Positions 24,024-52,202 of a stretch of 64,000 nucleotides of DNA are shown here, in pieces. The notes beneath the pieces are model-generated. The model was not told the DNA's origin, ran no database searches, and worked only from the letters and a program-made list of their open reading frames with translations. The stretch is from an uncultured delta proteobacterium. GTDB lineage: Bacteria > Myxococcota > UBA727 > VGSZ01. The DNA is taken from positions 272,616 to 336,615 of the forward strand of contig CAVZJB010000009.1 of assembly GCA_963775425.1 (NCBI GenBank), in the 5' to 3' direction. How positions within the stretch are numbered: the stretch's first letter is position 1; every line of letters begins with the position of its first letter. Both the position numbers and the translations under genes were made by a program.

Positions 24024-24056
24024 GGCACGCCGCGCGGTTCACGCAAGAGACGGGCG

Positions 24057-35131: not shown

Positions 35132-36652
35132 CTAGGCGAGCCTGGCCAACCGAAGCGCGGTGATCCTCTTCTGCTCCTCGGCCGCGTTCTTGATCTCGGC
35201 GTCGCGGTCGTTCTTCACGCGCTCCTCGAGGATGGCGAGCATCTCCGCCGCCGACTTCCCCGACGCCATCACGATGAAGATGAAGCCGTGCTTGGCGAAA
35301 TACGCGTCGTTTTGCGCGGCGAGGCGCGCCTTGACGTCGTCGACGGCGCCGCCGACGGCGCGCTGCTCGTCGTCGGACCACGCGCGGGACGCTGCCGTCG
35401 CTGCCGCGGCCGCTCCGCCGCCGATGCGCGGGTGCGCCGCGAAAGCCTCGAGCCAGTCGTCGGTGACGAGGGCGTTGAACGCGGCGCGCACCGACTCGTC
35501 CAAGGCGCTCGGCGCGAGGAACGGCCGCGCCGCCAGCATCTTCTTCGCCCACGTGCATGAGCCGCAGCAGGAGAGGAACGCCGCCTCCGCCTCGGCGGGC
35601 GGCATGGCGTTCAGGCGCTTGACGCGCAGGGCCGCGCGCTCGTCGTCGTCGACGCGGGCGAACACGCGGAAGCGCGCGACGCCGCCGTCGGGGTGGACGC
35701 GGAGGCGAACGTGCGACACCGCCGGTTGCGCGCCCGACAAGGGGAACACGTGCCGCGTGTGCGGCCGCAGTTGCGTGCGCGGGAACAGCTCGCGCCACTC
35801 GCCGTCTGCGGAGCTGCCGGCGTCGACCGCGAAGCTCTCGGGGCAGTTGCCCTTGAAGTGCGACGTGTCGACGACGAGCCGCGTGGGCGTCGACCGCGCG
35901 CCGAGCTTCACGACGGCCCAGTCGTAGCCCGCGCGGCGCGCGCGGCGGGTCTCCCACCCGTCGTGCATGCCGCCGCTGTGCCCGGGGAAGAGCAGGTTGT
36001 GGCGGGAGCCGAAGAACATGTCGCTGCAGGCGAGGACGACGCCACCGAGCTCGGCGCCGGACACCTCGAGCTCGCCGTCGAGGCCGCCGTGGAGACGGAA
36101 GTCGGGCAGGGGCTCGCCGTACACACGCAGCCGCGCGACGCCGCCGTCGGGGAAGATGCGCAGGCGCACGTGGGTGAAGCGGTACGGCGACGACACCGCG
36201 AAGTCGTTCTTGGCGTTGCCGAGGAGGGGCGAGCGCGGCAACAGCGGGAACCACTCCGCGTGCTTGGCGATCTCTTGCGCGCTCGGGTAGCCGTCCACGC
36301 TCGTGCCCTCGAGCGCGCAGTGCGACGGGAAGTTGCCGCGGAAGAACGCGGTGTCGACGACGACGCCGCGGATGACGCCCGGTGCCCCGAGCCGCACCAC
36401 GCAGAAGTCCTCGTGCCACTCACCGTCGCGCGCGCCGCTGTTCTCGCGGTGGCTGCGCCGGCTCTCCCAGCCGTCCATCCACTTGCCGCGGTCGGTGTAC
36501 GCGTCCTCGTCCCAGACGGGCTCCTTGGCCTTCACGAGGTTTTCCATGCCGGCGAAGAAGTCGTCGCTGCACACCACGGCGGCGCCGCCGAGCCGCTCGT
36601 TGGCCAGGTCGACGAGGTCCTCGAACGAAGCGATGGCGTGCGTCGTCGTCAT
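35132..36652 (-). CDS. alc: bifunctional allantoicase (two allantoicase repeats) / OHCU decarboxylase (UraD-like C-terminal domain)
   Basis: Duplicated allantoicase repeat (FFAGMENLV.., VDTAFFRGNFP / VDTSHFKGNCP). C-terminal HPRIGG...FIFIVMASGKSAAEMLAILEERVKND matches the OHCU decarboxylase signature. Confidence 0.8.
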   Translation of the reverse strand: MTTTHAIASFEDLVDLANERLGGAAVVCSDDFFAGMENLVKAKEPVWDEDAYTDRGKWMDGWESRRSHRENSGARDGEWHEDFCVVRLGAPGVIRGVVVDTAFFRGNFPSHCALEGTSVDGYPSAQEIAKHAEWFPLLPRSPLLGNAKNDFAVSSPYRFTHVRLRIFPDGGVARLRVYGEPLPDFRLHGGLDGELEVSGAELGGVVLACSDMFFGSRHNLLFPGHSGGMHDGWETRRARRAGYDWAVVKLGARSTPTRLVVDTSHFKGNCPESFAVDAGSSADGEWRELFPRTQLRPHTRHVFPLSGAQPAVSHVRLRVHPDGGVARFRVFARVDDDERAALRVKRLNAMPPAEAEAAFLSCCGSCTWAKKMLAARPFLAPSALDESVRAAFNALVTDDWLEAFAAHPRIGGGAAAAATAASRAWSDDEQRAVGGAVDDVKARLAAQNDAYFAKHGFIFIVMASGKSAAEMLAILEERVKNDRDAEIKNAAEEQKRITALRLARLA

Positions 36653-36709
36653 GGCCGGGTTGTCGGCCGCGCCGGGGGAAATGACAAGGCACTATCGCGT
36701 GCGGACGGG

Positions 36710-38164
36710 TCAACCGCGGCCGAGGATCAGCCGGCCGTCGCGCGCGGTGACGTCGTCGCCGCGGCGAAAGACCTGTTGCCCGCGCAGCCACGTGGAGCGC
36801 ACCACGCCGAACAGCTCGCGGCCGTGGTACGGCGTGAGCTTGTTCTTGTGCGCGAGCTTCTCCTGGTCGACGACGAAGGTCGCGTCGGGGTCGATGACGG
36901 CGAAGTCGGCGTCCTTGCCCTTGGCGATGCTCCCCTTGCGAGAGAGCCCCGCGAGGAGCGCGGGCTCTTCGCTCATCCAGCGCGCCACGTCGACGAGCGT
37001 CCGTCCGCGGGCGCGCGCGCCGGTCCACGTGGCGGGCAGCGTGAGCTGGAGCGAGGAGATGCCGCCCCACGCGGCGTCGAAGTCGCCGCGCTCGACCTGC
37101 TTGAGAGCGACGGTGCACGGCGAGTGGTCGCTGACCACGCTGTCGAGGACGCCGCGGGCGAGCGCGTCCCAGAGGGCGTCCTGGTTTTCGCGCTCGCGGA
37201 TGGGCGGCGTGCACTTGAACCAGGTGGCGCCGTCGTCGATCTCCTCGGCGCAAAACGACAGGTAGTGCGGGCAGGTCTCGACGGTGAGCGGCAGGCCGTC
37301 GTCGCGCGCGTCCTCCAGCAGGGCCAGGGCCTCCGACGACGAGTGATGCACGATGTGCACGGGCCCACCGCGGGCGCGACACATGCGGACCATGAGCTCG
37401 ACGGCGGCGTTCTCCGACGCCTTGGGCCGGCTCTCGAGGTGGAAGCGATAGCTCCGCCGCGACAAGGCGCCGGAGGCGAGGGCGGCCTCGAGCGCGTGCG
37501 CGGCCTCGTCGATGGGCCCCTGCAATTCGGCGTGGGCGAGCAACGGGGCGCGCGCGTCCCGCAGGATCCCGAGGGAGCGATCCAGGTCCGCCTCGGAGAC
37601 GTTCTTGAACTCGGGGACGCCCGAGTCGATGAGGAAGCACTTGAAGCCGAGCACGCCGCGCTCGACCAGCGGGACCAGGTCCTCGTGGTTCCCCGGCACC
37701 ACGCCGCCCCAGAAGCCGACGTCGACGGCGAGCTGGTTCTTGGCGGCGTCGAGCTTGTCCTCGAACGCGGCGACGCTCGTGGTGGGCGGCAGGGAATTGA
37801 GCGGCATGTCGACGAGGGTGGTGACGCCGCCGCGCGAGGCCGCTTGCGTGGCGGTGGCGAACCCCTCCCACGCCGTGCGCCCGGGCTCGTTCACGTGCAC
37901 GTGGCTGTCGACGAGGCCGGGCATCACGAGCGAATCGAGGAAGTCCACGACGTCGACGCCGACGGGCACGCGGCCGCGCTCAACGACGTCTACGATCGCG
38001 CCGCCGTCGTCGACGAGCACCGCCGCCGGCCGCACGGCGCCGCCGGTGACCACGCGCGTCGACGTGAACGCCCGCGCGATCCCCCCGGCGGGCGCGCCGC
38101 CGCGCCACGCCGAGCGACCCTCGTCGTGGCGTGGGGGCTTGTTGTCGCTCGCCCCCGTCGTCAC
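36710..38164 (-). CDS. allB: allantoinase (cyclic amidohydrolase)
   Basis: VDSHVHVNEPGRT, FKCF, HAE, DHSP metal-ligand motifs. The GTG start at 38164 overlaps the puuD stop (GTGA) and the 37-codon extension has coding-like GC3. Alternative GTG at 38053. Confidence 0.8.
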   Translation of the reverse strand: MTTGASDNKPPRHDEGRSAWRGGAPAGGIARAFTSTRVVTGGAVRPAAVLVDDGGAIVDVVERGRVPVGVDVVDFLDSLVMPGLVDSHVHVNEPGRTAWEGFATATQAASRGGVTTLVDMPLNSLPPTTSVAAFEDKLDAAKNQLAVDVGFWGGVVPGNHEDLVPLVERGVLGFKCFLIDSGVPEFKNVSEADLDRSLGILRDARAPLLAHAELQGPIDEAAHALEAALASGALSRRSYRFHLESRPKASENAAVELMVRMCRARGGPVHIVHHSSSEALALLEDARDDGLPLTVETCPHYLSFCAEEIDDGATWFKCTPPIRERENQDALWDALARGVLDSVVSDHSPCTVALKQVERGDFDAAWGGISSLQLTLPATWTGARARGRTLVDVARWMSEEPALLAGLSRKGSIAKGKDADFAVIDPDATFVVDQEKLAHKNKLTPYHGRELFGVVRSTWLRGQQVFRRGDDVTARDGRLILGRG

Positions 38165-39807
38165 GGCGCCCCCGCGGCCGCGGGGCCGAAGGCGAAGTCG
38201 GCGGTGACCTCGCCGCCGGCGGGCACCGTCACGTGCACCGTCTTCTTGCCGCCGGCGTCGCTCCACGCGGTGAGCTCGACGTCGCCGGCGGGGACGCCGT
38301 CGAGGACGAAGGCCCCGTCGTCCTTGGTGACGGCGAACCACGGGTCGTCGACGACGCCGATGTGGTTGATCATCCACGGGTGGATGTCGCAGCGCGTCTC
38401 CACCATCAGCTCGGGCGCACGGAACACCTTGGTGTCCCGCTGCCCCTGCGCGGGCTGGTTGATGCTGAAGGTGTCGTTGTTTTGCGCCACCGAGCGGATG
38501 TTGTGAAAGACCGGGTCGGTGTTCACGAAGGTGACGGGCTGTCCCACGCGCACGCCGCTCACGCGCGGCTGGTAGAGGCACCCCTTCTGCTCGACGGTGA
38601 CCTCGCCCTGCGGCGCGGGGATGGCGTACTTGTCGACGCCGCCGGTGACGGCGACGAACGCCTCCGCGAGCTTTCCGTCATGAACGACCGCGGCGGGGAT
38701 GGACAGCGGCCCGTCGTGGCCGGCCTCACAGCCGCCGTAGAGCGCCACCTCGCGTGGCGCGGGGACGTCCCCCTGCCATGTGACGCTGCCGCGGATGCGG
38801 CCGGTGGCCGTGATGGGCGTGCCCGTCTTGGCTGCGTTCACGACGGGCGCGGCGCGGTCGTGGTCCGAGGCCAGCGTGCCCGCGACGGACGCGACGATGG
38901 TGACGACGACGAGCGTGCCGAGGAAGCCGAGCATGACCGTGGCCGGCGGGTCCACCTTGTTCATCCACCACTTCACGCCGGCGCCGGCGCAGCAGACCAC
39001 GACGAGGATCACCCAGTTCCACCCGATGGTGGTGCCGGCCACGTGGGCGGCGGCGCCGTAGGTGAACGGGAAGTGGTTGGAGATCATGATGAAGATGACC
39101 GGGTAGGTCATGTAGTGGTTGTGCTTGCTGCGGCGCTTGGCCGAGTACGCCTTGGCCGCGTCGGGCTCCTTGCCCGTCTTCACGCTCTCGACGAGGTTTC
39201 GCTGCGCCGGGATGATGCGCATCCAGACGTTGGCCACCATGCACGTGCCCATCACCGCCGCGGTGTGGATGTACGCCGCGCGGCCCGACAGGAGGTGCGT
39301 GAACGCGAAGGCGATGGCCGCGAGGCCGATGACCGAGATGGCCACCGTGAGCGGCGGGTTCTGCGACGCGGCGCCGGCGAGCCGGGAGGACCACAGGAGG
39401 TCGTAGGCGACCCAAGCGACGACGAGCGTGCCCATGCAGATGGCGGTGGCCACCTGATGCGAGACCACCGGGTGAGCGGCGTCGACGAGGAGGACGCCGC
39501 CGCCGAGGTGGTAGAGCACGATGAGGAGGAAGAAGCCGGTCATCCAGGTGAACGCGGCCTCCCACTTGAACCAGTGAAGCGTCGACGGCAGCGCGCTCGG
39601 CGCCACCAGCTTCTTTTCGACCTCGTAGAAGCCGCCGGAGTGCACCATCCACAGGACTCCCTCGAGCCCCTCCCGCTTCTCCTTGGGCTTCTCCATGTGG
39701 CTGTCGAGCCAATGGAAGAAGATGGACGAGCCGATCCACATGATGCCGGCGATGAGGTGCGCCCAACGCAGGACGAGGTTCAAGCCTTCACTGACGAGCG
39801 GATTCAT
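38161..39807 (-). CDS. puuD: PuuD-like membrane urate hydroxylase N-terminal domain fused to a C-terminal cupredoxin (type-1 copper) domain
   Basis: About 300-aa polytopic membrane domain matching the urate-oxidase N-terminal family. C-terminus has a His...Cys-x2-His-x2-Met blue-copper ligand pattern (VFHNIRS...RCDIHPWM) instead of a cytochrome c. Confidence 0.7.
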   Translation of the reverse strand: MNPLVSEGLNLVLRWAHLIAGIMWIGSSIFFHWLDSHMEKPKEKREGLEGVLWMVHSGGFYEVEKKLVAPSALPSTLHWFKWEAAFTWMTGFFLLIVLYHLGGGVLLVDAAHPVVSHQVATAICMGTLVVAWVAYDLLWSSRLAGAASQNPPLTVAISVIGLAAIAFAFTHLLSGRAAYIHTAAVMGTCMVANVWMRIIPAQRNLVESVKTGKEPDAAKAYSAKRRSKHNHYMTYPVIFIMISNHFPFTYGAAAHVAGTTIGWNWVILVVVCCAGAGVKWWMNKVDPPATVMLGFLGTLVVVTIVASVAGTLASDHDRAAPVVNAAKTGTPITATGRIRGSVTWQGDVPAPREVALYGGCEAGHDGPLSIPAAVVHDGKLAEAFVAVTGGVDKYAIPAPQGEVTVEQKGCLYQPRVSGVRVGQPVTFVNTDPVFHNIRSVAQNNDTFSINQPAQGQRDTKVFRAPELMVETRCDIHPWMINHIGVVDDPWFAVTKDDGAFVLDGVPAGDVELTAWSDAGGKKTVHVTVPAGGEVTADFAFGPAAAGAP

Positions 39808-40495
39808 CGACGATCTCTTTCGCGCTGAAGGTGTTGTCTGCCCAGGTATGCACGGGCACGCGGCGCGCGTCGAGGAGCGCGGTGCGCACCGGGTGGGCGA
39901 TGGCGCCGTCGGCGCCCGCGACGCCGTAGACGTTGAAGAGCGACGCGAACGCCTCCACCACGTCGGGCGCGCCCGTGGCGAGGGTGAACCCCGCGTCGCC
40001 GGCGACCGCGAAGCGCGCCGCGTACGCGCGCAGCGCCGCCGGCGTGTCCCGCGCCGGATCGAGCGTGACGACGAGGACGCGGGCGCCGTCGCGGCGTGCC
40101 TCGGCGAGCTTCTTCATGGTGAGCGGACACATGGTCTCGACGGGGCAGTGCGTATAGACAAAGCCCACGGCGACGGGCCCGGCGACGTCACCAAGCTCGA
40201 ACGCTTGCCCGTCCTGGTCGACGAGCGGAAACGACGGCACCGGTTGTCCGGGCCGCCACGCGGCGACGTCGGCGCGCCAGGCGTCGTGGCTGCGACAGGA
40301 CGTGAGCGCGAGCGCGGCGCCGAGGAGCGCGGCGCACACCGTCGGCCACGAGGCACGTTCGTCAGGGCGCACCTGGGGGCCAATAGCGGCGATGACGGCG
40401 GGTGCCAACGGCGGGGGCGCGCGGCGCCGTGAGGTCGGAGGCAACACGAGCGCGCCCACGCTGTGACGGTAGCGCGCCCGAGCGGGCGTGGGCAT
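39788..40495 (-). CDS. SCO1/SenC-family copper chaperone (thioredoxin-like), probable lipoprotein
   Basis: YTHCPVETMCP (CxxxC) motif. LALTSC lipobox. 20-nt overlap with the puuD start. Upstream start uncertain. Confidence 0.6.
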   Translation of the reverse strand: MPTPARARYRHSVGALVLPPTSRRRAPPPLAPAVIAAIGPQVRPDERASWPTVCAALLGAALALTSCRSHDAWRADVAAWRPGQPVPSFPLVDQDGQAFELGDVAGPVAVGFVYTHCPVETMCPLTMKKLAEARRDGARVLVVTLDPARDTPAALRAYAARFAVAGDAGFTLATGAPDVVEAFASLFNVYGVAGADGAIAHPVRTALLDARRVPVHTWADNTFSAKEIVDESARQ

Positions 40496-40560
40496 TGACG
40501 GTCCGTCCGGCGGGAAGGAAACGGGCTGATGATCCTCTGCACGCCTTCCCCGGTCGGCCC

Positions 40561-41922
40561 ATGAGCAACACGTCGCTGCCCCCCACGTTCCTCGCCGAGA
40601 CCACCGCGCGCCTGCGGGCCGCCAACGAGCCCGTCACCCGTCGCTTCGTCGGCGAGAGCGCCTCACGCCAGCCGGTGCACACGGTCTACGGCGGGGCGCA
40701 GCTCTTCAAGAAGGACGCGGCGTGGAAGCTCGGCCGCGGCGCGCTCAAGGCGCTCGACGAGTACGCGCCCTCGGCGGACGTGTTCGCGCGCGCCGCGGGC
40801 ATCCGCGCCGACGTCGCCGGCGTCGTGTACGAGCGCGTGCGCGAGAAGCTCGTGCGCGAGCCCGTCGAGGACATGCGCATCGACTTCGAGGACGGCTACG
40901 GCAACCGCCCCGACGACGAAGAAGACGCCGAGGCGGTGCGCTGCGCGCACGAGGTGGCCGCCGGCATGAAGGATCCGCGCGCGCCGGGCAGCGGGCTGCC
41001 GCCGTTCATCGGCATTCGCATCAAGACCTTCTCGGACGAGCTGTTCGCGCGCGCGGTGCGCACCCTCGACCTTTTCGTGAGCGCGCTCGTCAAAGACACC
41101 GGCGGTAAGCTGCCGGACGGCTTCGTCATCACGCAGCCGAAGATCACCACGGCCGAGCACGTCGCCGTCCTCGCCGACGTCCTCGAAGCGCTGGAGGAGC
41201 GCCTCGGCCTGTCGTCGGGGGCGTTGCAGCTCGAGGTGATGATCGAGGCGACGCAGTCCATCCTGGACATCGACGGCAGGATCGCCCTGCCCAGGATCCT
41301 CGACGCCGCGCGCGGCCGCTGCGTGGCCGCGCACTTCGGGACCTACGACTACACCGCGTCCAACAACATCACCGCCGCGTACCAGTCCATGGAGCACGCG
41401 GTCTGCGACTTCGCCCGCACCTTCATGTTGCAGGCGTACGCGGGCACGGGCGTGTGGCTCAGCGACGGAGCCACCAACGTGATGCCGGTGCCGGTGCACC
41501 GCGCGGCCGACGGCCACGCGCTCACCGCCGCGCAGGTCGCCGAGAACGTGTCGGTGGTGCACGCGGCGTGGGCGCTGCACGTGCGCCACATCCGCCACTC
41601 GCTGGAAAACGGCTACTACCAGGGCTGGGACCTCCACCCCGCGCAGCTCCCCACGCGCTACGGCGCGCTCTACGCGTTCTTCCTCGAGGCGCTCCCCGCG
41701 GCGAGCGAGCGCCTGAAGAACTTCGTGCAGAAGGCCGCGCAGGCCACGCTCGTGGGCGACGTCTTCGACGACGCCGCCACGGGCCAGGGCCTGTTGAACT
41801 TCTTCCTGCGCGGCATCAACTGCGGCGCCCTCAAGGAGGACGAGGCCCTCGCCACGGGCCTCACCCTCGACGAGCTGCGCGGCCGCAGCTTCGTCAAGAT
41901 CTTGAAGAACCGTCGGGGTTGA
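40561..41922 (+). CDS. HpcH/HpaI aldolase - citrate lyase beta (CitE)/malyl-CoA lyase-like family protein
   Basis: IDFEDGYG, FVITQPKITTAEHV, LQLEVMIEATQSILDIDGRIALPRI...HFGTYDYTASNNI parallel the CitE-fold DLEDAV / LPKVES / IRLWAMIET...GTNDL blocks. Confidence 0.55.
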   Translation: MSNTSLPPTFLAETTARLRAANEPVTRRFVGESASRQPVHTVYGGAQLFKKDAAWKLGRGALKALDEYAPSADVFARAAGIRADVAGVVYERVREKLVREPVEDMRIDFEDGYGNRPDDEEDAEAVRCAHEVAAGMKDPRAPGSGLPPFIGIRIKTFSDELFARAVRTLDLFVSALVKDTGGKLPDGFVITQPKITTAEHVAVLADVLEALEERLGLSSGALQLEVMIEATQSILDIDGRIALPRILDAARGRCVAAHFGTYDYTASNNITAAYQSMEHAVCDFARTFMLQAYAGTGVWLSDGATNVMPVPVHRAADGHALTAAQVAENVSVVHAAWALHVRHIRHSLENGYYQGWDLHPAQLPTRYGALYAFFLEALPAASERLKNFVQKAAQATLVGDVFDDAATGQGLLNFFLRGINCGALKEDEALATGLTLDELRGRSFVKILKNRRG

Positions 41923-41932
41923 AGGCAGCGGC

Positions 41933-42943
41933 ATGCCCGTCGCCAATCCGGTCCAGTTCGCCGTGGTGCGCGAGGATCCCGTCGTCGAGCTCTCGCTCCT
42001 CGCGGACGTCCGGCGCGGCGCTTCGACCGCGGCGCTGCTCATCGCCTCGGGCGGCTGCACGGCGCTCACGGTCGCGGCGGCGCGCCCCGACGTGGCGCTC
42101 ACGCTGCTCGATGCGAACCCCGCCCAGCTCGCCCTCGTCGAGCGAAAGCGCGCCGCGCTCGCCGCGCACGCGCCGGGGTCGGCCGCGCGGCGGCGCACCT
42201 TCGGCGTCGACGCGGACGACGCGGCGTCCCTGTCGGGGTGCGGCAACTTCGAGTCGCTGTTTCGCGGGCTGCGCGCCGTGCTCGATGACCTGGTGATGCC
42301 GGCGGCCGAGCGGCGCGCGCTCCTCGCGGGCGACGGCGGCGCGGGCGCGCTCACCGGCAACAGGTACTGGCCGGTGGCGTTCGAGATGTTCTTCTCCGAC
42401 GCCATGCTCGAGGCCATGTTCGGGCCCGAGGCCACGCAGCACGCGGACAAGGGCTCGTACCCGGCGTACTTCCGCCGCGTCGTCGAGCGCGCCCTCGCCG
42501 GCGGCGCGGGGGGAGCGCCGGCGCGCGCGAACCCGTATCTTCACCACGTGTTGCTCGGCCACTACCTCGACGGCGCTCTGCCGGCGTTCCTGGAGCGCAT
42601 GACATGCGCGCAGGCGGAGGGCGCGCGCTTCAATCTCGTCGAGGGGAGCGTGACGCGGGGGCCGTCCTTCTCGGCGTTCGACCTCGTGTCGCTGTCGAAC
42701 CTCTTCGACTGGATGAGCGACGACGACGTGGCCGCGACGTGCGCGCGCCTCGCCGCCGAGTCCAAGCCCGGCGCCGTCGTGGTCTTGCGCCAGCTCAACA
42801 ACCGCGCTCCGGTCGAGCGCTTCTTCGGCGACGCGTTCCGCTTCGACGACGCACGCGCCGCGGCGCTCCTCGCCCGCGACCGCAGCATGTTCTACGAGCG
42901 CCTCGTGGTCGGCACGCGGGTCGCCGGCGGGGGTGGCGCATGA
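41933..42943 (+). CDS. DUF3419 (BtaA-like) protein with SAM-binding Rossmann motif
   Basis: IASGGCTALTVAAARPDVALTLLD (GxGxG plus acidic residue) and LSNLFDWM resemble the BtaA N-terminal/DUF3419 family. 4-nt overlap with the next gene. Confidence 0.5.
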   Translation: MPVANPVQFAVVREDPVVELSLLADVRRGASTAALLIASGGCTALTVAAARPDVALTLLDANPAQLALVERKRAALAAHAPGSAARRRTFGVDADDAASLSGCGNFESLFRGLRAVLDDLVMPAAERRALLAGDGGAGALTGNRYWPVAFEMFFSDAMLEAMFGPEATQHADKGSYPAYFRRVVERALAGGAGGAPARANPYLHHVLLGHYLDGALPAFLERMTCAQAEGARFNLVEGSVTRGPSFSAFDLVSLSNLFDWMSDDDVAATCARLAAESKPGAVVVLRQLNNRAPVERFFGDAFRFDDARAAALLARDRSMFYERLVVGTRVAGGGGA

Positions 42944-43689
42944 GCGCGGCGGCGCCCCCGGAGAGCGCGGGTCGCTCGGCTGCCTCGCCGGAGCTCGTGC
43001 GGCTCATCGACGACGTGCTCGCCGACGTCGACTACGCCGAGAACCCCTACTTCACCGCGCTGCGCGACGGGAGCTTTTCGCGCGAGGACTTCCTCGAGAC
43101 GCAGCTCCAATTCCACGCGGCGGTGACGTTCTTCTCGCGGCCCATGGCGGCGCTGGCGGCCAAGATCCCGTCCGCGGAGCTGCGCGTGGAGATCGTGCGC
43201 AACGTGTGGGAGGAGCACGGCGAGGGCGATCCCGCGCGCATGCACGGCGCCACCTTCGTCGAGCTCCTGGCGCGCCTCACCGGCGGCGCCGCCGACGAGG
43301 TGCGGCGGGAGATCGAGCGCCGCCCCCTCTGGCCGGAGGTGCGCGCGTTCAACACCCTCCTCGCCGGCGTCTGCGTGCTCGACGAGTACCTCGTGGGCGT
43401 CGGCTGTATGGGCATCGTCGAGCGGATGTTCGCCGAGATCTCCGGCTGGATCGGAAACGCCATCGTCGCCCGCGGGTTCCTGCCCGCCGACCGGATGATC
43501 CACTACAGCCTTCACGAGTCCCTCGACGTCAAGCACGCGTCCGACTTCTTCGCCGTGCTCGACGCCGCCTGGGGCGCCGCCGACGAGCGCTACCGCATCG
43601 AGCAAGGCCTGCGCATGGGCGCCATCGCGTTCGACCAGCTCTACGCGCGCCTGTACCGCTGCCGCGACCGCCGCTGGGTGCGCCCGTGA
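42940..43689 (+). CDS. haem-oxygenase-like di-iron oxidase/oxygenase (HDO; PqqC/CADD-like 'iron-containing redox enzyme' family)
   Basis: ENPYFTALRDGSFSREDFLETQLQFHAAVTFF...IVRNVWEEHGEG...HYSLHESLDVKHA: the E/H-rich helices typical of this family. Confidence 0.6.
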   Translation: MSAAAPPESAGRSAASPELVRLIDDVLADVDYAENPYFTALRDGSFSREDFLETQLQFHAAVTFFSRPMAALAAKIPSAELRVEIVRNVWEEHGEGDPARMHGATFVELLARLTGGAADEVRREIERRPLWPEVRAFNTLLAGVCVLDEYLVGVGCMGIVERMFAEISGWIGNAIVARGFLPADRMIHYSLHESLDVKHASDFFAVLDAAWGAADERYRIEQGLRMGAIAFDQLYARLYRCRDRRWVRP

Positions 43690-44846
43690 CGCGCCCGCGT
43701 CGTCGACCGCGCGCGGGGCGCCCGCCCACGGGCCGGTGGGCCGCCGCGCCCGTCACCGCCCTCGTCCTCGCCGTCACCGGCGCGCTCGCGGGCTGCCCCG
43801 CGCCGGCGAGCGAGGATCCGTTCGAGCTCGTCATCGCCGCCAAGAAGGCGGCCGCCGACGTGCGCGCCGACGGCGCCCGCGTCGCCTACACCGACGGCCT
43901 GGAGGCGAGCAGCGACGGCCAGGGGGTCGGGGTCGACGTCGTCGTCGCCGAGCGCGGCGAGGAGATCCTGCGCGCGCCGGCCGACGTCGCCGTGCGCGGG
44001 ATGGCGCTCGGCAAGACCTCCGTGGCCACGCTCGAGCTCGCCGAGGCCGCCGCCGTCAATCAGCACGTGGTCATCCGTCCCCTCGACGGCGGCGACGCCA
44101 TCGATGTCCCTCGCACGGACGCGCCCCTCGCCCTCGCCGCCGTCGACGACGGCGCCGGCTACCTCTGGATCGAAGCGCGCCTCGACGGCACCGACGACAC
44201 CGGCGGCGGCGTCGACGGCCTCTATGTGCTCACGCTCGTCGAGGCCGGCGAGGACGGTGTGGTGACCAGGCGCACGCCCTTCGACGCCGGAGAGATCCGC
44301 GCCCCCGCCGCCGTCCTCGAGCTGTTCCCGCGCCCCTTCGGCGTGCTCGTCGCCGGTGACGACGTCTACTTCGGCTGGGACTCCGACCTCTGCCGCGGCG
44401 GCTCCGTGCTCTACCGCGTGAGCCGCGCCGACGGCCACGGCGTCGCGGAGTGGCGCGGGCGCGTCGCCGCCGTCGGCCCCGTCGACGGCACGACGTGCGA
44501 GTGCGACACCACCGTCGCCGACAACGTCACGGACCGCGGCCAGGCCGTCGCGCTGGACGCGGGGACACCGGTGGTGGTGGGCGGTGTCTTCGACTGCGCC
44601 TCCGTGAGCGCGGAGCGCGGCTTCGTGCGTGACGGCGAGGACAGCGCCGAGGTCGAAGACGCGCTCCGCTTCGCGGGCTTCTCGTCGAGCGGCGTCACGG
44701 CCACCACGCCCACGGGAGTGGTGAAGCTCGTCGGCGTCGGCGAGGGCGCCGTCGTGAACGCCCACTCGCGCGTGACCGGCCTCGCGGTGGACGGCGGCGA
44801 CGTGTTCTTCAGCCTCGAGGACGGCGTCTACCGCCTCACGCCGTGA
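43686..44846 (+). CDS. lipoprotein of unknown function
   Basis: GTG start overlapping the upstream stop (GTGA). RPRRRPRAGR n-region, VTALVLAVTGALAGC lipobox. High GC3. Confidence 0.55.
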   Translation: MTRPRRRPRAGRPPTGRWAAAPVTALVLAVTGALAGCPAPASEDPFELVIAAKKAAADVRADGARVAYTDGLEASSDGQGVGVDVVVAERGEEILRAPADVAVRGMALGKTSVATLELAEAAAVNQHVVIRPLDGGDAIDVPRTDAPLALAAVDDGAGYLWIEARLDGTDDTGGGVDGLYVLTLVEAGEDGVVTRRTPFDAGEIRAPAAVLELFPRPFGVLVAGDDVYFGWDSDLCRGGSVLYRVSRADGHGVAEWRGRVAAVGPVDGTTCECDTTVADNVTDRGQAVALDAGTPVVVGGVFDCASVSAERGFVRDGEDSAEVEDALRFAGFSSSGVTATTPTGVVKLVGVGEGAVVNAHSRVTGLAVDGGDVFFSLEDGVYRLTP

Positions 44847-44906
44847 CGCGGCGGTCCGGCCGCCGTTGACCGCGAGCGCCCGGCGCGGTCTCACTGCACC
44901 CAGGGC

Positions 44907-45707
44907 ATGCGCTTCTTCAAGATCACCCGCGAGATCCTGCCGCGCTGGCAGGAGAAGCTCGAGGCGCTCGAGCAACTGAGCGTCTATCCCCTCGGCGCCG
45001 ACGCCTTTCGCCTCACGCACGGCGCGGACTACTTCGCGTTCTTCGAGCGCATGGGCGAGGTCCACTACTACGCGATCGAGGAGGGCGGCGCGCTCGCCGC
45101 GGTCGCTTGCGGCGTGTTGCGGCCGGCGTCGGTGCGGGCGCCGCGTCGCTGGTACGCCGCGGACCTGAAGGTGCACCCGGCCTTTCGTGGGAGACACCTG
45201 CCGATCACGCTGCTCCGCCGCGCGTTCCTCCAAAACTGGCTCCGCTGCGGGCGCGGGTACGCGGTGGCGATGGACCCGTCCGACGGGCGCGTGCCTCCGG
45301 GGGTGCGGCTGATGGCGCACTTCAAGTGGATCCCGATGTCATTGATGGCGCTCGCCAAGATCGACGTCTACGCCGCCGACGAGCACGGGATGAAGCGCGC
45401 CGCGCCGCTCATCGCGCGTGGAGGCGTGCGGCCTCGATACGTATCGCTCGCAGGGGTCAAGGACCTCGTGCTCGAGAGCTCCAAGGCGCCGCTCGATCTT
45501 CTTCACGTGTCGTTTGCGCCCACCGGCGACGACCGGGTCTACGAGGCGCCGCAACGCGGGGCCACGCACATGTGGTGCGTGCCACGTGAGCACGCGCTGG
45601 CCGGCGCGCTCGCCGCCGAGGGCTTCACGCCCACGGCGAGCGCGACGCTCTTGCACCACCGGCTCGCGCGTATGGATTGGGCGACGCTCGAGACCTGCGA
45701 GATCTGA
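44907..45707 (+). CDS. GNAT-fold acyl-CoA N-acyltransferase-like protein
   Basis: YAADLKVHPAFRGRHL resembles GNAT motif A. 266 aa. Confidence 0.45.
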   Translation: MRFFKITREILPRWQEKLEALEQLSVYPLGADAFRLTHGADYFAFFERMGEVHYYAIEEGGALAAVACGVLRPASVRAPRRWYAADLKVHPAFRGRHLPITLLRRAFLQNWLRCGRGYAVAMDPSDGRVPPGVRLMAHFKWIPMSLMALAKIDVYAADEHGMKRAAPLIARGGVRPRYVSLAGVKDLVLESSKAPLDLLHVSFAPTGDDRVYEAPQRGATHMWCVPREHALAGALAAEGFTPTASATLLHHRLARMDWATLETCEI

Positions 45708-45709
45708 AC

Positions 45710-47662
45710 GTGTGCGGCATCGTCGCCGTCCTGCGCCTCGGCGAGCGTCCGCTGCCCGGGGACGACGCGGTACGCGCGATGACCCGAGCCATCGCTCACC
45801 GCGGCCCCGACGGCGAAGGCTTCCATCGCGACGACGACGTCGCGCTCGGCGTGGTGCGGCTGGCGGTCGTCGACGTCGGGCACGGGCGGCAGCCGGCGCG
45901 CGGCTGCCGCGGCGCCGGGCCCGTGTCCGTCGTGAACGGCGAGCTCTACGAGCACCGCCCGCTGCGCGCGGAGCTCGCCGCGCGGCACGAGATCGTCGAC
46001 GCGTGCGACGCCACGCTGCTGCCGCATTTGTACGAGGACCACGGCGCCAACATGGTGCTGCACATGCACGGCATGTTCGCCTTTGCGCTGTGGGACCGGC
46101 GCGAGCGCACGCTGCTCCTCGGCCGCGACCGCCTCGGCATCAAACCGCTCTTCTTCGCCGTCACGCCCGACTTCCTCGTTGCTGCGTCGGAGGCAAAGGC
46201 GATCTTCGCCTCCGGCCTCGTCCAGCCGCGCATCGATCGCGACGCCGTCGACGACCTCTTCTCCCTGGGGTACCCGTGCCCGCCGCGCACGATGTTCGCC
46301 GGCGTCACTGCGGTGCCCCCGGGGCACACGGTGACGGCTCGCGCGGGCGGCGGCGCACAGCGAGGCCGCGTCGACGCCGCTCGCCGCTACTGGCGCGCGC
46401 CGCTGTCTCCGCCGGCGCACACCGGCCAACGAGGGTCGCCCGCGGGGTCGGCCGCCGACGTCCACGACGCCCTCGCCGCCGCCTTGCGCACGCACCTCGA
46501 CGCCGACGTCCCCGTGGCCACGTGGCTGTCCGGAGGGCTCGACTCGTCCGCGGTCTCGGCGCTCGCGCGCGAGGCCGCCGGCGCGCCGCTCCCCGCGTTC
46601 GCGCTCACGTTCCCGGGAGACCCCGAGGGGCTCGACGAGAGCGCACCCGCGCGCGCCGTCGCCCGCTTCCTCGGCGCGGACCTGGACGAGGTGCCCATGG
46701 GAGCTCCGGCGGCTTCGTTGCTCGAGCGCATGACGTGGCACCTCGAGCTCCCGCTCCTCGTCCCCGGCGCGCTCGGCGGCCTCCTGCTCTCCGAGCGGCA
46801 GCGCGCGCGAGGCTTCAAGGTCACGCTCACCGGCGACGGTGCCGATGAGGTGCTCGGCGGCTACGACGTGTTTCGCGCGAGCCGCGCGCGCCGGCTCCTC
46901 GGGGCGCGCGCGTTCTCCGCCGCCGTCGTCGCGGGCGACGCGCTCGGCCTCCTCTCGCCGCGCGGCATCGGTGCGTTCCTCGCGCAAAACGCCCGCGCGC
47001 CACGGACGGACATCGTCGCCCGCGCGTACGGCGGCGTGCGCCCACCCTGGCTCGAGCAGTGGGCGCTCCTCGACGTCGAGCGCGCGGCGCTCCTGTCGCC
47101 CGACGGCAGGCGCGTGCGCCCGATCGAAGAGGCGCCCGCGGGCTTCGCCGCTTTGGTGCGCGAGGACGCCGTCGCGCTCGATCCGCTCGACGCCGAGATC
47201 GCGCTGGAGCTGGAGACGCGCCTGCCCGCGTGGATCCTGGTCATCGGTGATCGCTCATCGATGGCCCACGGGGTCGAGGCCCGCTTGCCGTTCCTCGACG
47301 ACGACGTCGTGCGCACGCTCCTCGCCGTCCGGCCGGCGCTGAAGATGCGCGGGATGCGCGAGAAGGCCGTGCTGCGCGACGCCGTCGCGGGGCTGCTGCC
47401 GCGCGCCATCGTGCGGCGCAGGAAGCAGCCGTTCATGACGCCGATCGCGCCGTGGTTCTTCCCGCCGGGAGCTACGCCGCCCGCCCTGACGCGCGCGCGG
47501 CTCGAGGACGCCGGGCTGTTCGACGCCGCCGTCGTCGCGCGGCTCCTCACGCGTCTGCACACCTCGCGCCCCGGGACGCTCGAGCGCGTCCGGCTGGAGA
47601 TGGTGCTGATGCTCGTCCTCGGGACGCAGCTCCTGCACGCGTCTTTCGTGGCCAGGGCTTAG
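45710..47662 (+). CDS. asnB: asparagine synthetase (glutamine-hydrolysing), AsnB family
   Basis: GTG-Cys start (V/MCGIVAV) for the N-terminal nucleophile. SGGLDSS PP-loop. Conserved C-terminal synthetase domain. Confidence 0.85.
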   Translation: MCGIVAVLRLGERPLPGDDAVRAMTRAIAHRGPDGEGFHRDDDVALGVVRLAVVDVGHGRQPARGCRGAGPVSVVNGELYEHRPLRAELAARHEIVDACDATLLPHLYEDHGANMVLHMHGMFAFALWDRRERTLLLGRDRLGIKPLFFAVTPDFLVAASEAKAIFASGLVQPRIDRDAVDDLFSLGYPCPPRTMFAGVTAVPPGHTVTARAGGGAQRGRVDAARRYWRAPLSPPAHTGQRGSPAGSAADVHDALAAALRTHLDADVPVATWLSGGLDSSAVSALAREAAGAPLPAFALTFPGDPEGLDESAPARAVARFLGADLDEVPMGAPAASLLERMTWHLELPLLVPGALGGLLLSERQRARGFKVTLTGDGADEVLGGYDVFRASRARRLLGARAFSAAVVAGDALGLLSPRGIGAFLAQNARAPRTDIVARAYGGVRPPWLEQWALLDVERAALLSPDGRRVRPIEEAPAGFAALVREDAVALDPLDAEIALELETRLPAWILVIGDRSSMAHGVEARLPFLDDDVVRTLLAVRPALKMRGMREKAVLRDAVAGLLPRAIVRRRKQPFMTPIAPWFFPPGATPPALTRARLEDAGLFDAAVVARLLTRLHTSRPGTLERVRLEMVLMLVLGTQLLHASFVARA

Positions 47663-47820
47663 GGCCCCCGAATGAACAACTCGATCGCCCTCGCGGCCGA
47701 TCCATCGCCGCTGGCTTCGTTGCTCGTCGGTCACGTGGCGACGGCCACGCTCCCTCCTCGCGCCTCGCCATCGGCGCGCCTCGACCGCGATCATCGACCG
47801 ACTTGTTCATTCGAGGGCCC
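47663..47820. mobile_element. MITE-like non-autonomous element: about 158 bp, 17-18-bp terminal inverted repeats (GGCCCCCGAATGAACAA / TTGTTCATTCGAGGGCCC) flanked by direct TTAG
   Basis: Seen directly between the convergent asnB and NRPS stops. The interior is also partly self-complementary. A TTAG (YTAR) duplication would fit an IS5-family target. Confidence 0.5.
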
Positions 47821-47828
47821 TTAGCCCT

Positions 47829-50800
47829 CTAGATCGCGTCGGCCGCGCCGACGTCGGCCTGCGGGGCGGCGGCGAGGGAGCGCGGACGCGCGGGGCGCTT
47901 GTCGACGACCTCGTCGATGAGGCCCGTGATGCACGTGGCCATGCGCTCGATGTTCTCGCTCCGAAACAGCTCGAGGTGCGAGCCCTTCACCGTGACGACG
48001 TCGATGCGACCCTTGACCCAGCGGCGCCAGCCGTTGGTGGGATCGTCCATGCGCGTGGCCGGCCAGCGGAAGGGATGCTCGGCGACAAAGAGCAGGAGCG
48101 GCGCCGTCTCTCCGTTCTGTTTGGGCATGTACGCGAGCTGGGCCTGCGTGAGGATGGCCCAGATCTGCTTCATGCGATCTTCGCGCTCACGGTCGGCGCC
48201 GTCGACGGCGGGCGCGAGCAGCTCGCCGAGGCCGAGCTTGAAGAGCAAGCGGCGGCGCACGTTGTCGATGCGATCCTTCACGTAGTTGAAGCGGCCCAAG
48301 GCGTCACGCCTGCGCAGCTCCTCGACATGCGCGAGCGCGCGCTCCATGCGCGGAAGCTTCTCGGGATAGCCGGGCGCGAAGGCGTCGAACGCGACGATGG
48401 CGCCGACGTTCTTCCCGCGCCGGCGCAGCCGGTGCGCGAGCTCGTAGGCGACCATGGCCCCGAAGCTGTAGCCGCCGACGACGAGCTGCTGCCCCGACAG
48501 CCCGCGCGCGTCGAGCTCGCGCTCGTAGGCCGCGGCGATCTCCTCGACCGACTCGCGTGGCAGGTCTTCGCCGTCGGCGCCGATGGCGGTGAAGGCGTAG
48601 ACGGGTTGATCGGGCCCGAGCCGCTGCGCGAGCTCGCGAAAGATGAACACCTGGCCGCCCGCGCCGGACACGATGAGCAGCGGCGGGCGCGTCCCGTGCG
48701 CGTTCAACACGACGAGGTGGCTCTGCGGCTCGGACGTCGCGCGCTCGCCGTCGCCGAGGCTCTGCGCGAGCGCGGCGATGGTGGGCTTCGCCAGGATGCG
48801 CGACAGCGGGACGTTGATGCCCAGCTCCTTCTTCAGCCGCGACACCACCACGACCGCGAGCAGCGAGTGGCCGCCCATGTCGTCGAAGAAGTCGTCGTGA
48901 ACACCCACCGGCGCGCGCAAGACGTCGCTCCACAGGGCGACGAGCTTCTCCTCGAGCGGGGTGCGCGGTGGGGACAGCGCGCGCCGCTCGAGGACGAGCG
49001 CCGGATCAGGGAGCGCCGCGCGGTCGAGCTTGCCGTTGGAGGTGACCGGCAGGCGGTCGAGCCGCACCAGGGCCGAAGGCACCATGAAGTCCGGCAGCGC
49101 CGCAGCCACCGCCGCCTTCAACGACGGCGCGTCGAAGGGCTGCGCCGCATGGAGCGGCACGACGTACGCCACCACGGCCTTCGCGCCGGAGGCGTCGGGG
49201 CGCGCGACGCACACGACGTCGCGCACGCCGGGCTGCTTGCGCAGCACGGCTTCGATCTCGCCGAGCTCGACGCGGAAGCCGCGCACCTTCACCTGGAAGT
49301 CGGCGCGCCCGAGGAACTCCATGGTGCCGTCGTCCCAGAAGCGCGCGAGGTCGCCCGTCTTGTAGATGCGCTCGCCCGGGAGGAACGGATCGGGGAGGAA
49401 CCGCTCGGCGGTGAGCTCCTCGCGGTTGAGGTAGCCGTCGGCGAGGCAGAGGCCGCCGATGTAGAGGTCGCCGGCGATGCCGGTGGGCGCCGGGCGCATG
49501 TGGCGATCGAGGATGTAGTAGCGGGCGTTGTCGATGGGACGGCCGTAGGGGATGGAGCGCCACGACGGGTCTACGTGGCCGATGCGGTGGAAGTTCGACC
49601 AGATGGCGGCCTCGGTGGCGCCGCCGAACGACACGGGTTCCACACCCTCGAACACCTCGCGCAGGTGGTCGGGCAGCTTGACCGGGATCCAGTCGCCGGA
49701 CATGAGCGCGAGCCGCAGCGTCGACGACGGCGCGCGCGCCGGAAAGAACGGCGCGAGCCGCGCCAGCGCCGGCGGCGCGGAGTCCCAGATGGTGATGCCG
49801 GGCGCGGTGAGCTTCTTCACCAGGAGCTCCGGCTCGCGCAGCGTCTCCACCGAAGCGATCTCGACGACGGCGCCGGCGCCGAGCGCGCCGAAGACGTCGT
49901 AGACGGACAGGTCGAAGCTCGGGGACGTGACGAACAAGAGCTTGTCGCGCGGGCCGACGCTGAAGGTGCGGTTCACCCACTGCAGCGTGTTCGTCACCGC
50001 GCGGTGCGTGAGCACCACGCCCTTGGGCCTGCCGGTGCTGCCCGACGTGTAGATGGCGTAGCTCACGTCCCTCGAGGCGGCGACGCGCGCGGGCCGGGTG
50101 TCGGGAGCGCCCTGCACGTCCGCGCCGTCGACGCCCAGGATGGGGATGCCCGGCGGCGGCGCGCCGTCGCCGTGGCCCCACGGCAGCGACGACGACGTCA
50201 CCACCGCCACCGCTCGCGCGTCTTCGACCATGAAGCGCGCGCGCTCTTCGGGGTAGCCCGGGTCCACGGGCACATATGCCGCACCGGACTTGGCGATGCC
50301 GATCATCGTGGTGACGAGGTCGAAGTTGCGGTCGAGCAGGAACGCCACGTATTGGCCGGGCTTCACCCCGCGGGCGCGCAGCGCGTGGGCGAGGCGGTTG
50401 GCGCGCCGCTCCACCTCGGCGAAGGTGAGCGTCTCTCCCTCGAATTCCAGGGCGACGTCGTCAGGCCGCGCGTCCACCTGCTCCTCGAAGAGCGTGTGGA
50501 TGAGGATCTCGTCTGAAAACGGCGCGGCCGTGTCGTTCCAGCCGAAGACCTGCCGCTTGCGGGTCTCGTCGTCGAGGAGGTCGACGCGCGCGAGGGGCTT
50601 TTCGGGATCCGCCGCGACCTGCGCGCACACCGCGGAGATCTGCTCCACCAGCGCGCGCACGCGGGGCGTGTCGACCGCGCCTTCGTCGACGACGAGCGAC
50701 GCCTGTCCGCCGCTCAGGCGCAGCGCCAGGACCGCGCCCGGCGGGAGGGCCTCGCCGTCGTCGAGCAGGACGGCCACGCACGACAGCGCGCTCGTCTGGA

Positions 50801-52202
50801 GCGCGCGGCTGGGGGAGAGCACAGGGGTACGCGCGACGAGGTCGACGAGGTAGCCGCCGCGGCGGCGGAGCTCGTCGAGGTCCTTTCGCACCGCGCGCAC
50901 CAGCTCCGCGAAGCCGCGCCCCGCGTCCAGGCCGACGAACAACGGGACGGTGGGCGCCAACAAGGCCGAGGCGGCTTCGAAGCGCTTGCGCACGGGGCCG
51001 TCTACGAGGGCGACGCACAGCTCGTCGCGGTCGCACAGCGTGGCCATGGCGAAGGAGAACGCGGCGGTGGCTGCGGCCTCGATGTCATCGGCGAAGCGCG
51101 AGCGCAGCTCGGGCAGGGGGAGCGAGTGCACCGACGTTTGTCCCGGCGGCCCCGCCGCCGACAAGAACGGCACCGCCGGCGACTCCGCGCGCGCGAGGCG
51201 CTTGACGAAGAACGGCTCGGCCTCGGCGATCTCGCGGGTGATCGCCGCGCGGCCCTCGCGTCCGGGATCGACGATCTGTCCACCGGGCTTGAGTCCCAGG
51301 TAGTGCAGCGCCTCCTCGACGGAGATCTCGACTCCGCTCAGGAGCGACGTCCGCTCCACGCGCAGCGCCCCCTGGGCGCACGCCACCACGAAGGAGCGGG
51401 CGTCGGCCTCGAGGACGGTGCCCGGGCCCCCGCCCGCGCCGGACACCGACGCCTCACGCACGACCACCGCGCGCTCCCCCGCCGACGTCTTGTGCACGAG
51501 CTTGGCGAGGGCGAAGCGGTTGATGTACGGGCCCCAGTCGCAGGCGCGCACGAGCCGGTCGAGCTCGGCGGCCGTCTGGCTCCAGTCGAGAGTGGCCAGG
51601 GCCGCGGGGCGATCGTGACGCGAGAAGATCAGCCGCTCGCCGCCGGGGTTCGTCCCCTTCGGCTGGGGGATGCCCGGCGGCGCGCCGTGCTCGAGCTTCT
51701 CGACGAGAGACTTGAAGGCGTCGAGCGCGAGCGCGGCGTTCTTGATGTTGAGGGAGACGGAGCTCTCGCGCTCCTCGATGTCGACGTCGCGGCGCTCGAG
51801 GATGTCGCCGGTGTCGATGCCGTCGGCGAGGCGATGCCACACCACGGCGTGCGTGCGCTCGCCGCGCAGGAGCGCCCACGCCGAGCCGTGAATGCCCGCG
51901 TAGCGGGGCAGCGGTCCGTCGTGGAAATTGACGGCGTCGATGCGCGCCTTGGTGAAGTGCTCGGCCTTGAGGATGGCGGGGTACGTGATGGACAAGAGGA
52001 CGTCGATGTCGCCGGCGGCCATGAGCTCACCGATGCGCGCGCGCCCGTAGACCGGCACGTCCTTGCCCCGCGCCCACTCGGCGAGGGCCGGGTTGAGCGT
52101 GACGAGGCCGGCGAGGGCGTGCCCCCGCTCCAGGAGGAGCTCGCCGCACGAGACGGCGAGCGGCTCTTCTCCGAGGACGAGGCAGCGAAGGTGCGCGGGC
52201 AC
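47829..52202 (-). CDS. single-module non-ribosomal peptide synthetase: formyltransferase (F) - degenerate C-like region - A - T(PCP) - TE
   Basis: N-terminus Fmt-like (NFHDGPLPRYAGIHGSAWALLRGERTHAVVWHRLADGIDTGDIL). A-domain cores (YTSGSTGRPKGV, FDLSVYD, YKTGDL, GRADFQVKVRGFRVELGEIE, LPVTSNGKLDR). PCP FFDDMGGHSLLAV. TE GYSFGAMVAYE. Confidence 0.9.
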   Translation of the reverse strand: MPAHLRCLVLGEEPLAVSCGELLLERGHALAGLVTLNPALAEWARGKDVPVYGRARIGELMAAGDIDVLLSITYPAILKAEHFTKARIDAVNFHDGPLPRYAGIHGSAWALLRGERTHAVVWHRLADGIDTGDILERRDVDIEERESSVSLNIKNAALALDAFKSLVEKLEHGAPPGIPQPKGTNPGGERLIFSRHDRPAALATLDWSQTAAELDRLVRACDWGPYINRFALAKLVHKTSAGERAVVVREASVSGAGGGPGTVLEADARSFVVACAQGALRVERTSLLSGVEISVEEALHYLGLKPGGQIVDPGREGRAAITREIAEAEPFFVKRLARAESPAVPFLSAAGPPGQTSVHSLPLPELRSRFADDIEAAATAAFSFAMATLCDRDELCVALVDGPVRKRFEAASALLAPTVPLFVGLDAGRGFAELVRAVRKDLDELRRRGGYLVDLVARTPVLSPSRALQTSALSCVAVLLDDGEALPPGAVLALRLSGGQASLVVDEGAVDTPRVRALVEQISAVCAQVAADPEKPLARVDLLDDETRKRQVFGWNDTAAPFSDEILIHTLFEEQVDARPDDVALEFEGETLTFAEVERRANRLAHALRARGVKPGQYVAFLLDRNFDLVTTMIGIAKSGAAYVPVDPGYPEERARFMVEDARAVAVVTSSSLPWGHGDGAPPPGIPILGVDGADVQGAPDTRPARVAASRDVSYAIYTSGSTGRPKGVVLTHRAVTNTLQWVNRTFSVGPRDKLLFVTSPSFDLSVYDVFGALGAGAVVEIASVETLREPELLVKKLTAPGITIWDSAPPALARLAPFFPARAPSSTLRLALMSGDWIPVKLPDHLREVFEGVEPVSFGGATEAAIWSNFHRIGHVDPSWRSIPYGRPIDNARYYILDRHMRPAPTGIAGDLYIGGLCLADGYLNREELTAERFLPDPFLPGERIYKTGDLARFWDDGTMEFLGRADFQVKVRGFRVELGEIEAVLRKQPGVRDVVCVARPDASGAKAVVAYVVPLHAAQPFDAPSLKAAVAAALPDFMVPSALVRLDRLPVTSNGKLDRAALPDPALVLERRALSPPRTPLEEKLVALWSDVLRAPVGVHDDFFDDMGGHSLLAVVVVSRLKKELGINVPLSRILAKPTIAALAQSLGDGERATSEPQSHLVVLNAHGTRPPLLIVSGAGGQVFIFRELAQRLGPDQPVYAFTAIGADGEDLPRESVEEIAAAYERELDARGLSGQQLVVGGYSFGAMVAYELAHRLRRRGKNVGAIVAFDAFAPGYPEKLPRMERALAHVEELRRRDALGRFNYVKDRIDNVRRRLLFKLGLGELLAPAVDGADREREDRMKQIWAILTQAQLAYMPKQNGETAPLLLFVAEHPFRWPATRMDDPTNGWRRWVKGRIDVVTVKGSHLELFRSENIERMATCITGLIDEVVDKRPARPRSLAAAPQADVGAADAI

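Follow-up and report, generated by a model that had tools for sequence, protein, structure and literature searches.

A conserved three-gene operon of a DUF3419 protein, a haem-oxygenase-like di-iron oxidase, and a tandem GNAT within a six-gene stretch from an uncultured Myxococcota bacterium

An uncultured delta proteobacterium of the Myxococcota (assembly GCA_963775425.1, contig CAVZJB010000009.1) carries six adjacent genes within the 64,000-nucleotide stretch analysed here (contig positions 272,616 to 336,615; hereafter the window). The original prediction took the six for one uncharacterised cassette that, with an adjacent nonribosomal peptide synthetase (NRPS) locus, makes a modified amino acid or small-molecule building block. 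Which of the genes belong together, and what could they make? The functional unit is a three-gene operon and not six genes: the second, third, and fifth genes (g2, g3, and g5) encode a DUF3419 protein, a haem-oxygenase-like di-iron oxidase (HDO), and a tandem GNAT acyltransferase-like protein, and this triad occurs in bacteria of several phyla, reaching Actinomycetota. Its parts come from known superfamilies, and together they are predicted to form a compact biosynthetic operon built around an HDO. The first gene (g1) lies outside the triad and is part of a purine-catabolism neighbourhood.

Because G+C is high across the window (∼72%), genes were called from G+C at third codon positions (GC3). 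This frame analysis gave six plus-strand coding stretches in 40531–47662, with minus-strand genes bordering them at either end. Public protein records are identical to the products of g1 (453 aa, P0001), g3 (249 aa, P0121), and g5 (266 aa, P0241). The six genes are:

40561–41922, plus strand: g1, 453 aa, DUF6986 (PF22484; E = 3e-180)
41933–42943, plus strand: g2, 336 aa, DUF3419 (PF11899; E = 6.6e-21), first gene of the triad
42940–43689, plus strand: g3, 249 aa, Haem_oxygenas_2 (PF14518; E = 5e-17), second gene of the triad
43686–44846, plus strand: g4, 386 aa, predicted lipoprotein with lipobox LAGC, no family
44907–45707, plus strand: g5, 266 aa, tandem GNAT, marginal match to Acetyltransf_1 (E = 3.5e-4), third gene of the triad
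45710–47662, plus strand: g6, 650 aa, AsnB-type glutamine amidotransferase (TIGR01536; 374.6 bits)

Domain searches bore out the family or fold originally given for each of the six products, with the refinement that g1 belongs to DUF6986. The first four genes had been described as translationally coupled, and the two overlaps on which this rested are present: ATGA at the g2/g3 junction (42940–42943) and, provided that g4 starts at that GTG, GTGA at the g3/g4 junction (43686–43689). The stop codon of g1 and the ATG of g2 are 10 nt apart and not 11. Gaps of 60 nt and 2 nt separate g4 from g5 and g5 from g6, respectively. No promoter-like or terminator-like sites were found between g1 and g6, and transcription of the triad probably reads through from g1.

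The triad was compared across ∼85 loci, drawn from five contexts recovered by exact-protein look-ups, 80 metagenome loci, and two plasmid records. In nearly all loci of sufficient length, tblastn detected a relative of g2 before the HDO gene and a relative of g5 after it. Hidden Markov models built from the triad alignments found g2 in 48 of 49 HDO loci with enough upstream sequence to be testable and g5 in 46 of 51. The genes are usually ordered g2-g3-g5, with g2-g5-g3 in a few loci, and their stop and start codons often overlap or abut; in the closest triads (L088 and L091), the GNAT gene directly follows the HDO gene. Conversely, DUF6986, the lipoprotein, AsnB, and an NRPS adjoin the triad in none of the ∼85 other loci, and clustering of open reading frames (ORFs) revealed no further gene family within 7 kb of the HDO gene in more than three of 27 long loci. 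The six-gene order thus recurs in no other genome, and what is conserved is g2-g3-g5. Of the cassette first proposed, g2 and g3 endure as a tightly coupled, conserved pair, and the lipoprotein and AsnB drop out.

Flanks of the triad are heterogeneous. Genes nearby included those for 3′-phosphoadenosine 5′-phosphosulfate (PAPS) reductase, beta-propellers, a hydrolase, a DegT aminotransferase, SelO, and a lecithin:cholesterol acyltransferase (LCAT)-like protein, and Pfam searches on 20 flanking genes yielded no theme. Fusions that could hint at a substrate were absent among 150 g2 representatives and the 120 g3 homologues listed. A role in polyamine metabolism was considered, as amino-acid decarboxylase genes adjoin the triad in L089 and L090, and was dropped because they do not recur. 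A literature search returned no description of a DUF3419-HDO-GNAT combination, in agreement with the original remark that the genes match no described pathway. The HDO clade is locked to a BtaA-like S-adenosylmethionine (SAM) enzyme and a tandem GNAT with no other dedicated genes, which makes the triad a compact, directly testable three-gene system of ∼3 kb.

The reach into Actinomycetota rests on a plasmid of Mycobacterium riyadhense (NZ_OY970457; L172, record 413165–418826), in which DUF3419, HDO, and GNAT genes (416109–418826) are followed by one for an MMPL transporter. The HDO is 39% identical to g3. Searches of plasmids with g2 and g5 by tblastn gave no match, and the Mycobacterium orthologues were recovered by profile comparison only (hhalign probabilities of 99.9 for DUF3419 and 99.3 for GNAT). 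On this plasmid, the triad is flanked by PE/PPE genes at one end and by three genes for tyrosine recombinases at the other, and the annotated start of the DUF3419 protein (MTASGGCTA...) looks truncated relative to the family. A plasmid of Streptomyces sp. NBC_00257 (L171) carries a lone HDO gene between IS6 and IS5 transposase genes; including this one, six Streptomyces plasmids encode an HDO homologue of ∼40% identity with neither DUF3419 nor GNAT. In Legionella sp. CNM-4043-24 (L089; JBNVZR010000026.1), a group II pyridoxal phosphate-dependent decarboxylase gene precedes DUF3419 and HDO genes, no GNAT gene is present, and genes for a short-chain dehydrogenase/reductase and a copper amine oxidase lie downstream. 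The DUF3419 protein of this strain is far more divergent (25% identical) than its HDO (59%).

Among the triad proteins, g3 has the clearest assignment, to the HDOs (general background in PMC13133933). It scores 62.7 bits against PF14518, for which the cut-off is 28.9, and the haem-oxygenase-like helical fold was confirmed. The HDO ligand pattern of Glu...His, Glu, and His-x3-Asp-x2-His on core helices is complete: the six residues E92, H102, E161, H192, D196, and H199 do not vary among 20 homologues. They align with the ligand motifs of CT610/CADD, whose published ligands are E81, H88, E142, H174, D178, and H181. A seventh carboxylate, E53, was considered as a predictor of reaction class and was not used, its alignment to BesC and CADD being ambiguous. 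The best sequence match in the PDB is HrmI (1.7e-8). The known chemistry of HDOs spans N-nitrosation, formation of nitriles, alkenes, and nitro groups, and self-sacrificing synthesis of para-aminobenzoate. HrmI (a lysine N6-oxygenase), CADD (a 4-aminobenzoate synthase), BesC, and UndA are 13–22% identical to g3. In contrast to them, g3 is minimal (∼240 aa, with no extra domain) and belongs to a highly conserved clade fixed beside DUF3419 and GNAT genes; we know of no characterised HDO with that gene context. Homologues number ∼990, a large and unusually conserved set, and the best 120, which include proteins of Myxococcota, Legionella, and metagenome bacteria, are 59–77% identical. Together, the ligands and fold argue that g3 is an intact di-iron HDO, and we predict that it represents a new HDO clade.

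The assignment of g2 to DUF3419 is also clear (75.3 bits against a cut-off of 28.2 for PF11899), and all 41 orthologues examined match this family, the best at 2.9e-29. Conserved motifs are QFAVVREDP, SGGCTA, DxNPAQ, GNFESLFR, LSNIFDWM, RQLNN, and DRSLFY. At a threshold of E ≤ 1e-30, the subfamily falls into 130 clusters when grouped at 50% identity; its listed full-length members have ∼300–380 aa and none has an added domain. To our knowledge, the sole characterised member of PF11899 is BtaA, the SAM:diacylglycerol 3-amino-3-carboxypropyl transferase of betaine-lipid synthesis. With BtaA, g2 shares the Pfam family, a class I SAM-binding core, and a comparable set of motifs, and by these matches it joins BtaA at the family level only. 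It differs in its genetic partners: in btaAB operons, btaA adjoins a gene for a BtaB-type N-methyltransferase, whereas in the triad the partners are an HDO and a GNAT. By homology, g2 is a putative 3-amino-3-carboxypropyl transferase. Since no member but BtaA is known to be characterised, a second function for DUF3419 would be new.

The match of g5 itself to Acetyltransf_1 is marginal (21.3 bits against a cut-off of 20.7). The assignment is firmer across the family, with 31 of 41 orthologues matching Acetyltransf_1 (best 2.9e-9), and the GNAT fold was confirmed; the second GNAT-like half is degenerate. Its structural neighbours among tandem GNATs, namely glucosamine N-acetyltransferase (4zm6/5kf1), clavulanic-acid ORF14 (2wpw), and MAB_4324 (7q3a), are only 8–13% identical. 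Compared with these, g5 has an N-terminal signature of its own (YPLGxDxFxIDHGxDYFAFF), and the CoA pyrophosphate motif R/Q-x-x-G-x-G/A is cut to 'RG', within DLKVxPxxRG.

What could three such proteins do in succession? Homology suggests a logic of three steps, SAM aminocarboxypropyl transfer, di-iron oxidation with O2, and N-acylation, to which we give roughly an even chance. In the first step, g2 would move the 3-amino-3-carboxypropyl group of SAM onto a common cellular nucleophile, yielding a homoserine-type alpha-amino-acid moiety and methylthioadenosine. In the second, g3 would oxidise that moiety with O2. Of the characterised enzymes, HrmI is the nearest to g3, which favours N-oxygenation here; the alternatives are desaturation and C-C cleavage, reactions seen in BesC and UndA. 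In the third, g5 would N-acylate the resulting amine or hydroxylamine from an acyl-CoA. At the end would stand a head group or metabolite of modified homoserine type. No gene for a substrate supplier or partner recurs around the triad, and a membrane lipid or some ordinary metabolite should therefore serve as the acceptor. Here, where AsnB is co-transcribed, it may also amidate a carboxylate, and the lipoprotein would be a passenger.

Several observations weigh against this scheme. g2 is ∼60–80 residues shorter than a typical BtaA. Its best match to the Pfam model is confined to the C-terminal half (positions 184–384 of 385), a second, shorter stretch also passing. g2 also weakly matches ordinary methyltransferase families, which makes methyl transfer possible, and no BtaB-type partner accompanies it, as no family beyond g2, g3, and g5 recurs in more than three of the 27 long loci within 7 kb. 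Identity of g3 to characterised enzymes does not exceed 22%, so that any reaction class given to it is tentative. Most structural neighbours of g5 acetylate soluble amines. The GNAT gene is missing in five loci: the Legionella locus L089, the short metagenome loci L100, L111, and L123, and the Streptomyces locus L171. Adjacency of MMPL to the triad is a single case. Finally, GC3 of g2–g6 is not deviant, and the difference from close relatives may reflect gain of these genes here or their loss there.

Within the three-step logic, a lipid and a soluble product are about equally likely, with at most a slight lean towards a lipid head group. Hints of a lipid are the lipid substrate of BtaA, the MMPL gene after the Mycobacterium triad, the gene for an LCAT-like lipase near the triad in L119, and genes for extracytoplasmic function sigma factors near it in L088 and L090. 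Hints of a soluble product are that characterised HDO relatives use amino acids and that soluble amines are the substrates of the enzymes closest to g5 in structure. Tentatively, and with somewhat less confidence than we place in the three-step logic itself, we suggest that the triad makes a class of compound that has not been described. This could be a phosphorus-free aminolipid with an HDO-oxidised, N-acylated homoserine-ether head group, or a SAM-derived N-oxygenated or hydroxamate metabolite. The enzymes would then be translationally coupled, possibly forming a complex, and the carriers would be Myxococcota, Legionella, Planctomycetota, Poribacteria, and Mycobacterium.

A soluble amino acid with a toxic or signalling role, such as an O-substituted vinylglycine-type compound, an N-oxygenated homoserine derivative, or a hydroxamate chelator, is a possible but rather unlikely product. 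In such a case the GNAT would act as a hydroxamate-forming acylase or as an acetyltransferase for self-protection. The closest characterised HDOs (HrmI, BesC, and CADD) do act on free amino acids or side chains. An N-hydroxylase followed by a GNAT is the established route to hydroxamates (IucD/IucB and MbtG/MbtK), and MMPL proteins, one of which follows the Mycobacterium triad, export siderophores too. However, no exporter, receptor, or regulator recurs in the 27 long loci, which is unusual for toxins and siderophores, and no hydroxamate-type acyltransferase family is among the 25 families most matched by g5 orthologues. The high identity of the HDO among closest relatives (59–77%) fits a housekeeping-type role better than a specialised toxin.

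It is improbable that g2 is instead a methyltransferase and that the triad methylates, N-oxygenates, and acetylates an existing amine by the logic of SznE/SznF. Such a role could account for g2 lacking part of a BtaA-length architecture and for the weak matches of 21 of 41 orthologues to Methyltransf_12; comparison of the g2 profile with the PDB likewise found distant methyltransferases only (E ∼0.4) and no related solved structure. But weak matches of this sort are expected of any class I SAM fold, and all 41 orthologues fit DUF3419 far better (2.9e-29 vs. 9e-6).

That all six genes and the adjacent NRPS form one pathway to a modified amino-acid building block is highly unlikely, although a single strand, short or no gaps, the lack of a predicted terminator, and an AsnB start 2 nt past g5 make co-transcription probable in this genome. 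None of g1, g4, g6, and the NRPS is found with the triad in the ∼85 other loci. In all 80 loci examined from other genomes, g1 occurs with neither g2 nor g3, and its usual company is purine-catabolism genes. The NRPS block, for its part, is retained by relatives in which g2–g6 are missing.

What, then, is g1? Its domain matches place it as a DUF6986 protein in the malate-synthase/CitE TIM-barrel superfamily. The match to MS_TIM-barrel is marginal (26.7 bits against a cut-off of 26.4), and the CitE/HpcH-like label it was first given finds a sub-cut-off match to HpcH_HpaI (PF03328; 22.3 bits against 25). A comparison of the family profile with the PDB gave a weak match to malate synthase G (E = 1.4e-3) over the Mg-ligand stretch, and the corresponding residues of g1, E229 and D263, are invariant. 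The likeness to malate synthase and CitE/HpcH lyases is thus weak and centred on the Mg-ligand strand, whereas g1 differs from them in belonging to the separate family DUF6986 and in having urate/allantoin catabolic genes as partners. DUF6986 homologues number more than 8000, and among the best 120 the identity to g1 is 62% or higher. NCBI names some of them 'phosphoenolpyruvate kinase', a name for which a literature search found no basis.

The setting of g1 is more telling. Directly upstream, a urate/allantoin operon on the minus strand (35132–40495) encodes SCO1, a PuuD-type urate oxidase, an amidohydrolase, and an allantoicase fused to a 2-oxo-4-hydroxy-4-carboxy-5-ureidoimidazoline (OHCU) decarboxylase. 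This association was counted across 60 DUF6986 loci of several phyla, each of at least 9 kb and taken from L001–L080. A urate/allantoin gene lies within 4 kb of the DUF6986 gene in 42 of them, frequently in the same orientation. Genes near DUF6986 were those for:

allantoicase, 32 of 60 loci
allantoinase-like amidohydrolase, 24 of 60 loci
5-hydroxyisourate (HIU) hydrolase, 23 of 60 loci
PuuD-type urate oxidase, 18 of 60 loci
uricase, 13 of 60 loci

From this context and the superfamily assignment we infer that g1 would be a glyoxylate-handling enzyme for the final stage of ureide breakdown. The link to urate and allantoin catabolism provides a testable role for a very widespread family. A ∼215-aa family without a Pfam match also recurs near DUF6986 in 23 loci.

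Three relatives, the closest available, have g1 proteins of 76–84% identity; in each of them g1 lies at the equivalent site, divergent from the purine operon, and g2–g6 are absent from that site. The original inclusion of the CitE-like gene in the unit does not hold, as it stands alone at the site in close relatives. The genes downstream of g1 differ among the three: a 2-hydroxyacid dehydrogenase/peroxidase-like/GT2 block in one, an NRPS/ABC/dehydrogenase/GT2 block in another, and unrelated genes in the last. In the window, 41923–47828 is thus a variable segment; the DUF6986 gene on one side of it and the minus-strand NRPS/ABC/dehydrogenase/glycosyltransferase block on the other are both conserved.

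The two remaining genes of the variable segment are particular to this lineage or genome. The coding status of g4 is backed by GC3, and its product has a signal peptide with the lipobox. Searches of Pfam, NCBIfam, and PADLOC with g4 returned no family, and tblastn found no counterpart in any of the 170 loci compared. A relationship to the beta-propeller proteins near other triads was considered, and BLASTP gave nothing. As no counterpart stands beside any other triad, g4 is a lineage-specific insertion between the HDO and GNAT genes. The g6 product is well above the TIGR01536 cut-off of 267 bits and has the domains GATase_7 (PF13537) and Asn_synthase (PF00733); its GTG start gives the usual N-terminal Cys (V-CGIVAV). 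AsnB is a neighbour of the triad in this genome only. Involvement of the six products in anti-phage defence was also considered, and none of g1–g6 matched a PADLOC model.

Downstream, convergent with g6, minus-strand genes encode a formyltransferase-A-T-TE NRPS, an ATP-binding cassette (ABC) transporter, a 2-hydroxyacid dehydrogenase, a di-haem peroxidase-like protein, and a GT2 glycosyltransferase. The proposed tie between this NRPS and the cassette fails: the NRPS block is found in relatives without g2–g6, and in other loci the surroundings of the triad show no recurrent NRPS family. The NRPS (47829–52202, minus strand) has a single module of formyltransferase (FT)-A-T-TE organisation, and its syntenic relative in L085 (11310–15359) opens with a condensation domain (C-A-T-TE). 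Similarity between the two begins only at residue 418, and this looks like a swap of the N-terminal domain between the window and L085.

One further feature lies between g6 and the NRPS gene:

47654–47828, no strand: inverted repeat with arms of 34 nt that are 88% complementary and 107 nt apart

The repeat spans the entire gap between g6 and the NRPS gene, both stop codons included, and delimits the variable segment on its downstream side. A search for such inverted repeats returned two copies where 0.03 were expected, and the repeat occurs once in the window. Its predicted RNA fold has an energy of −101 kcal/mol (z = −6.1). It may serve as a terminator in both directions or be what is left of a small mobile element.

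Elsewhere in the window, 24001–28000 reaches a G+C of 79–81%, compared with ∼71% in the rest, and there a minus-strand ORF of 1209 codons is overlapped by a plus-strand ORF of 790 codons.

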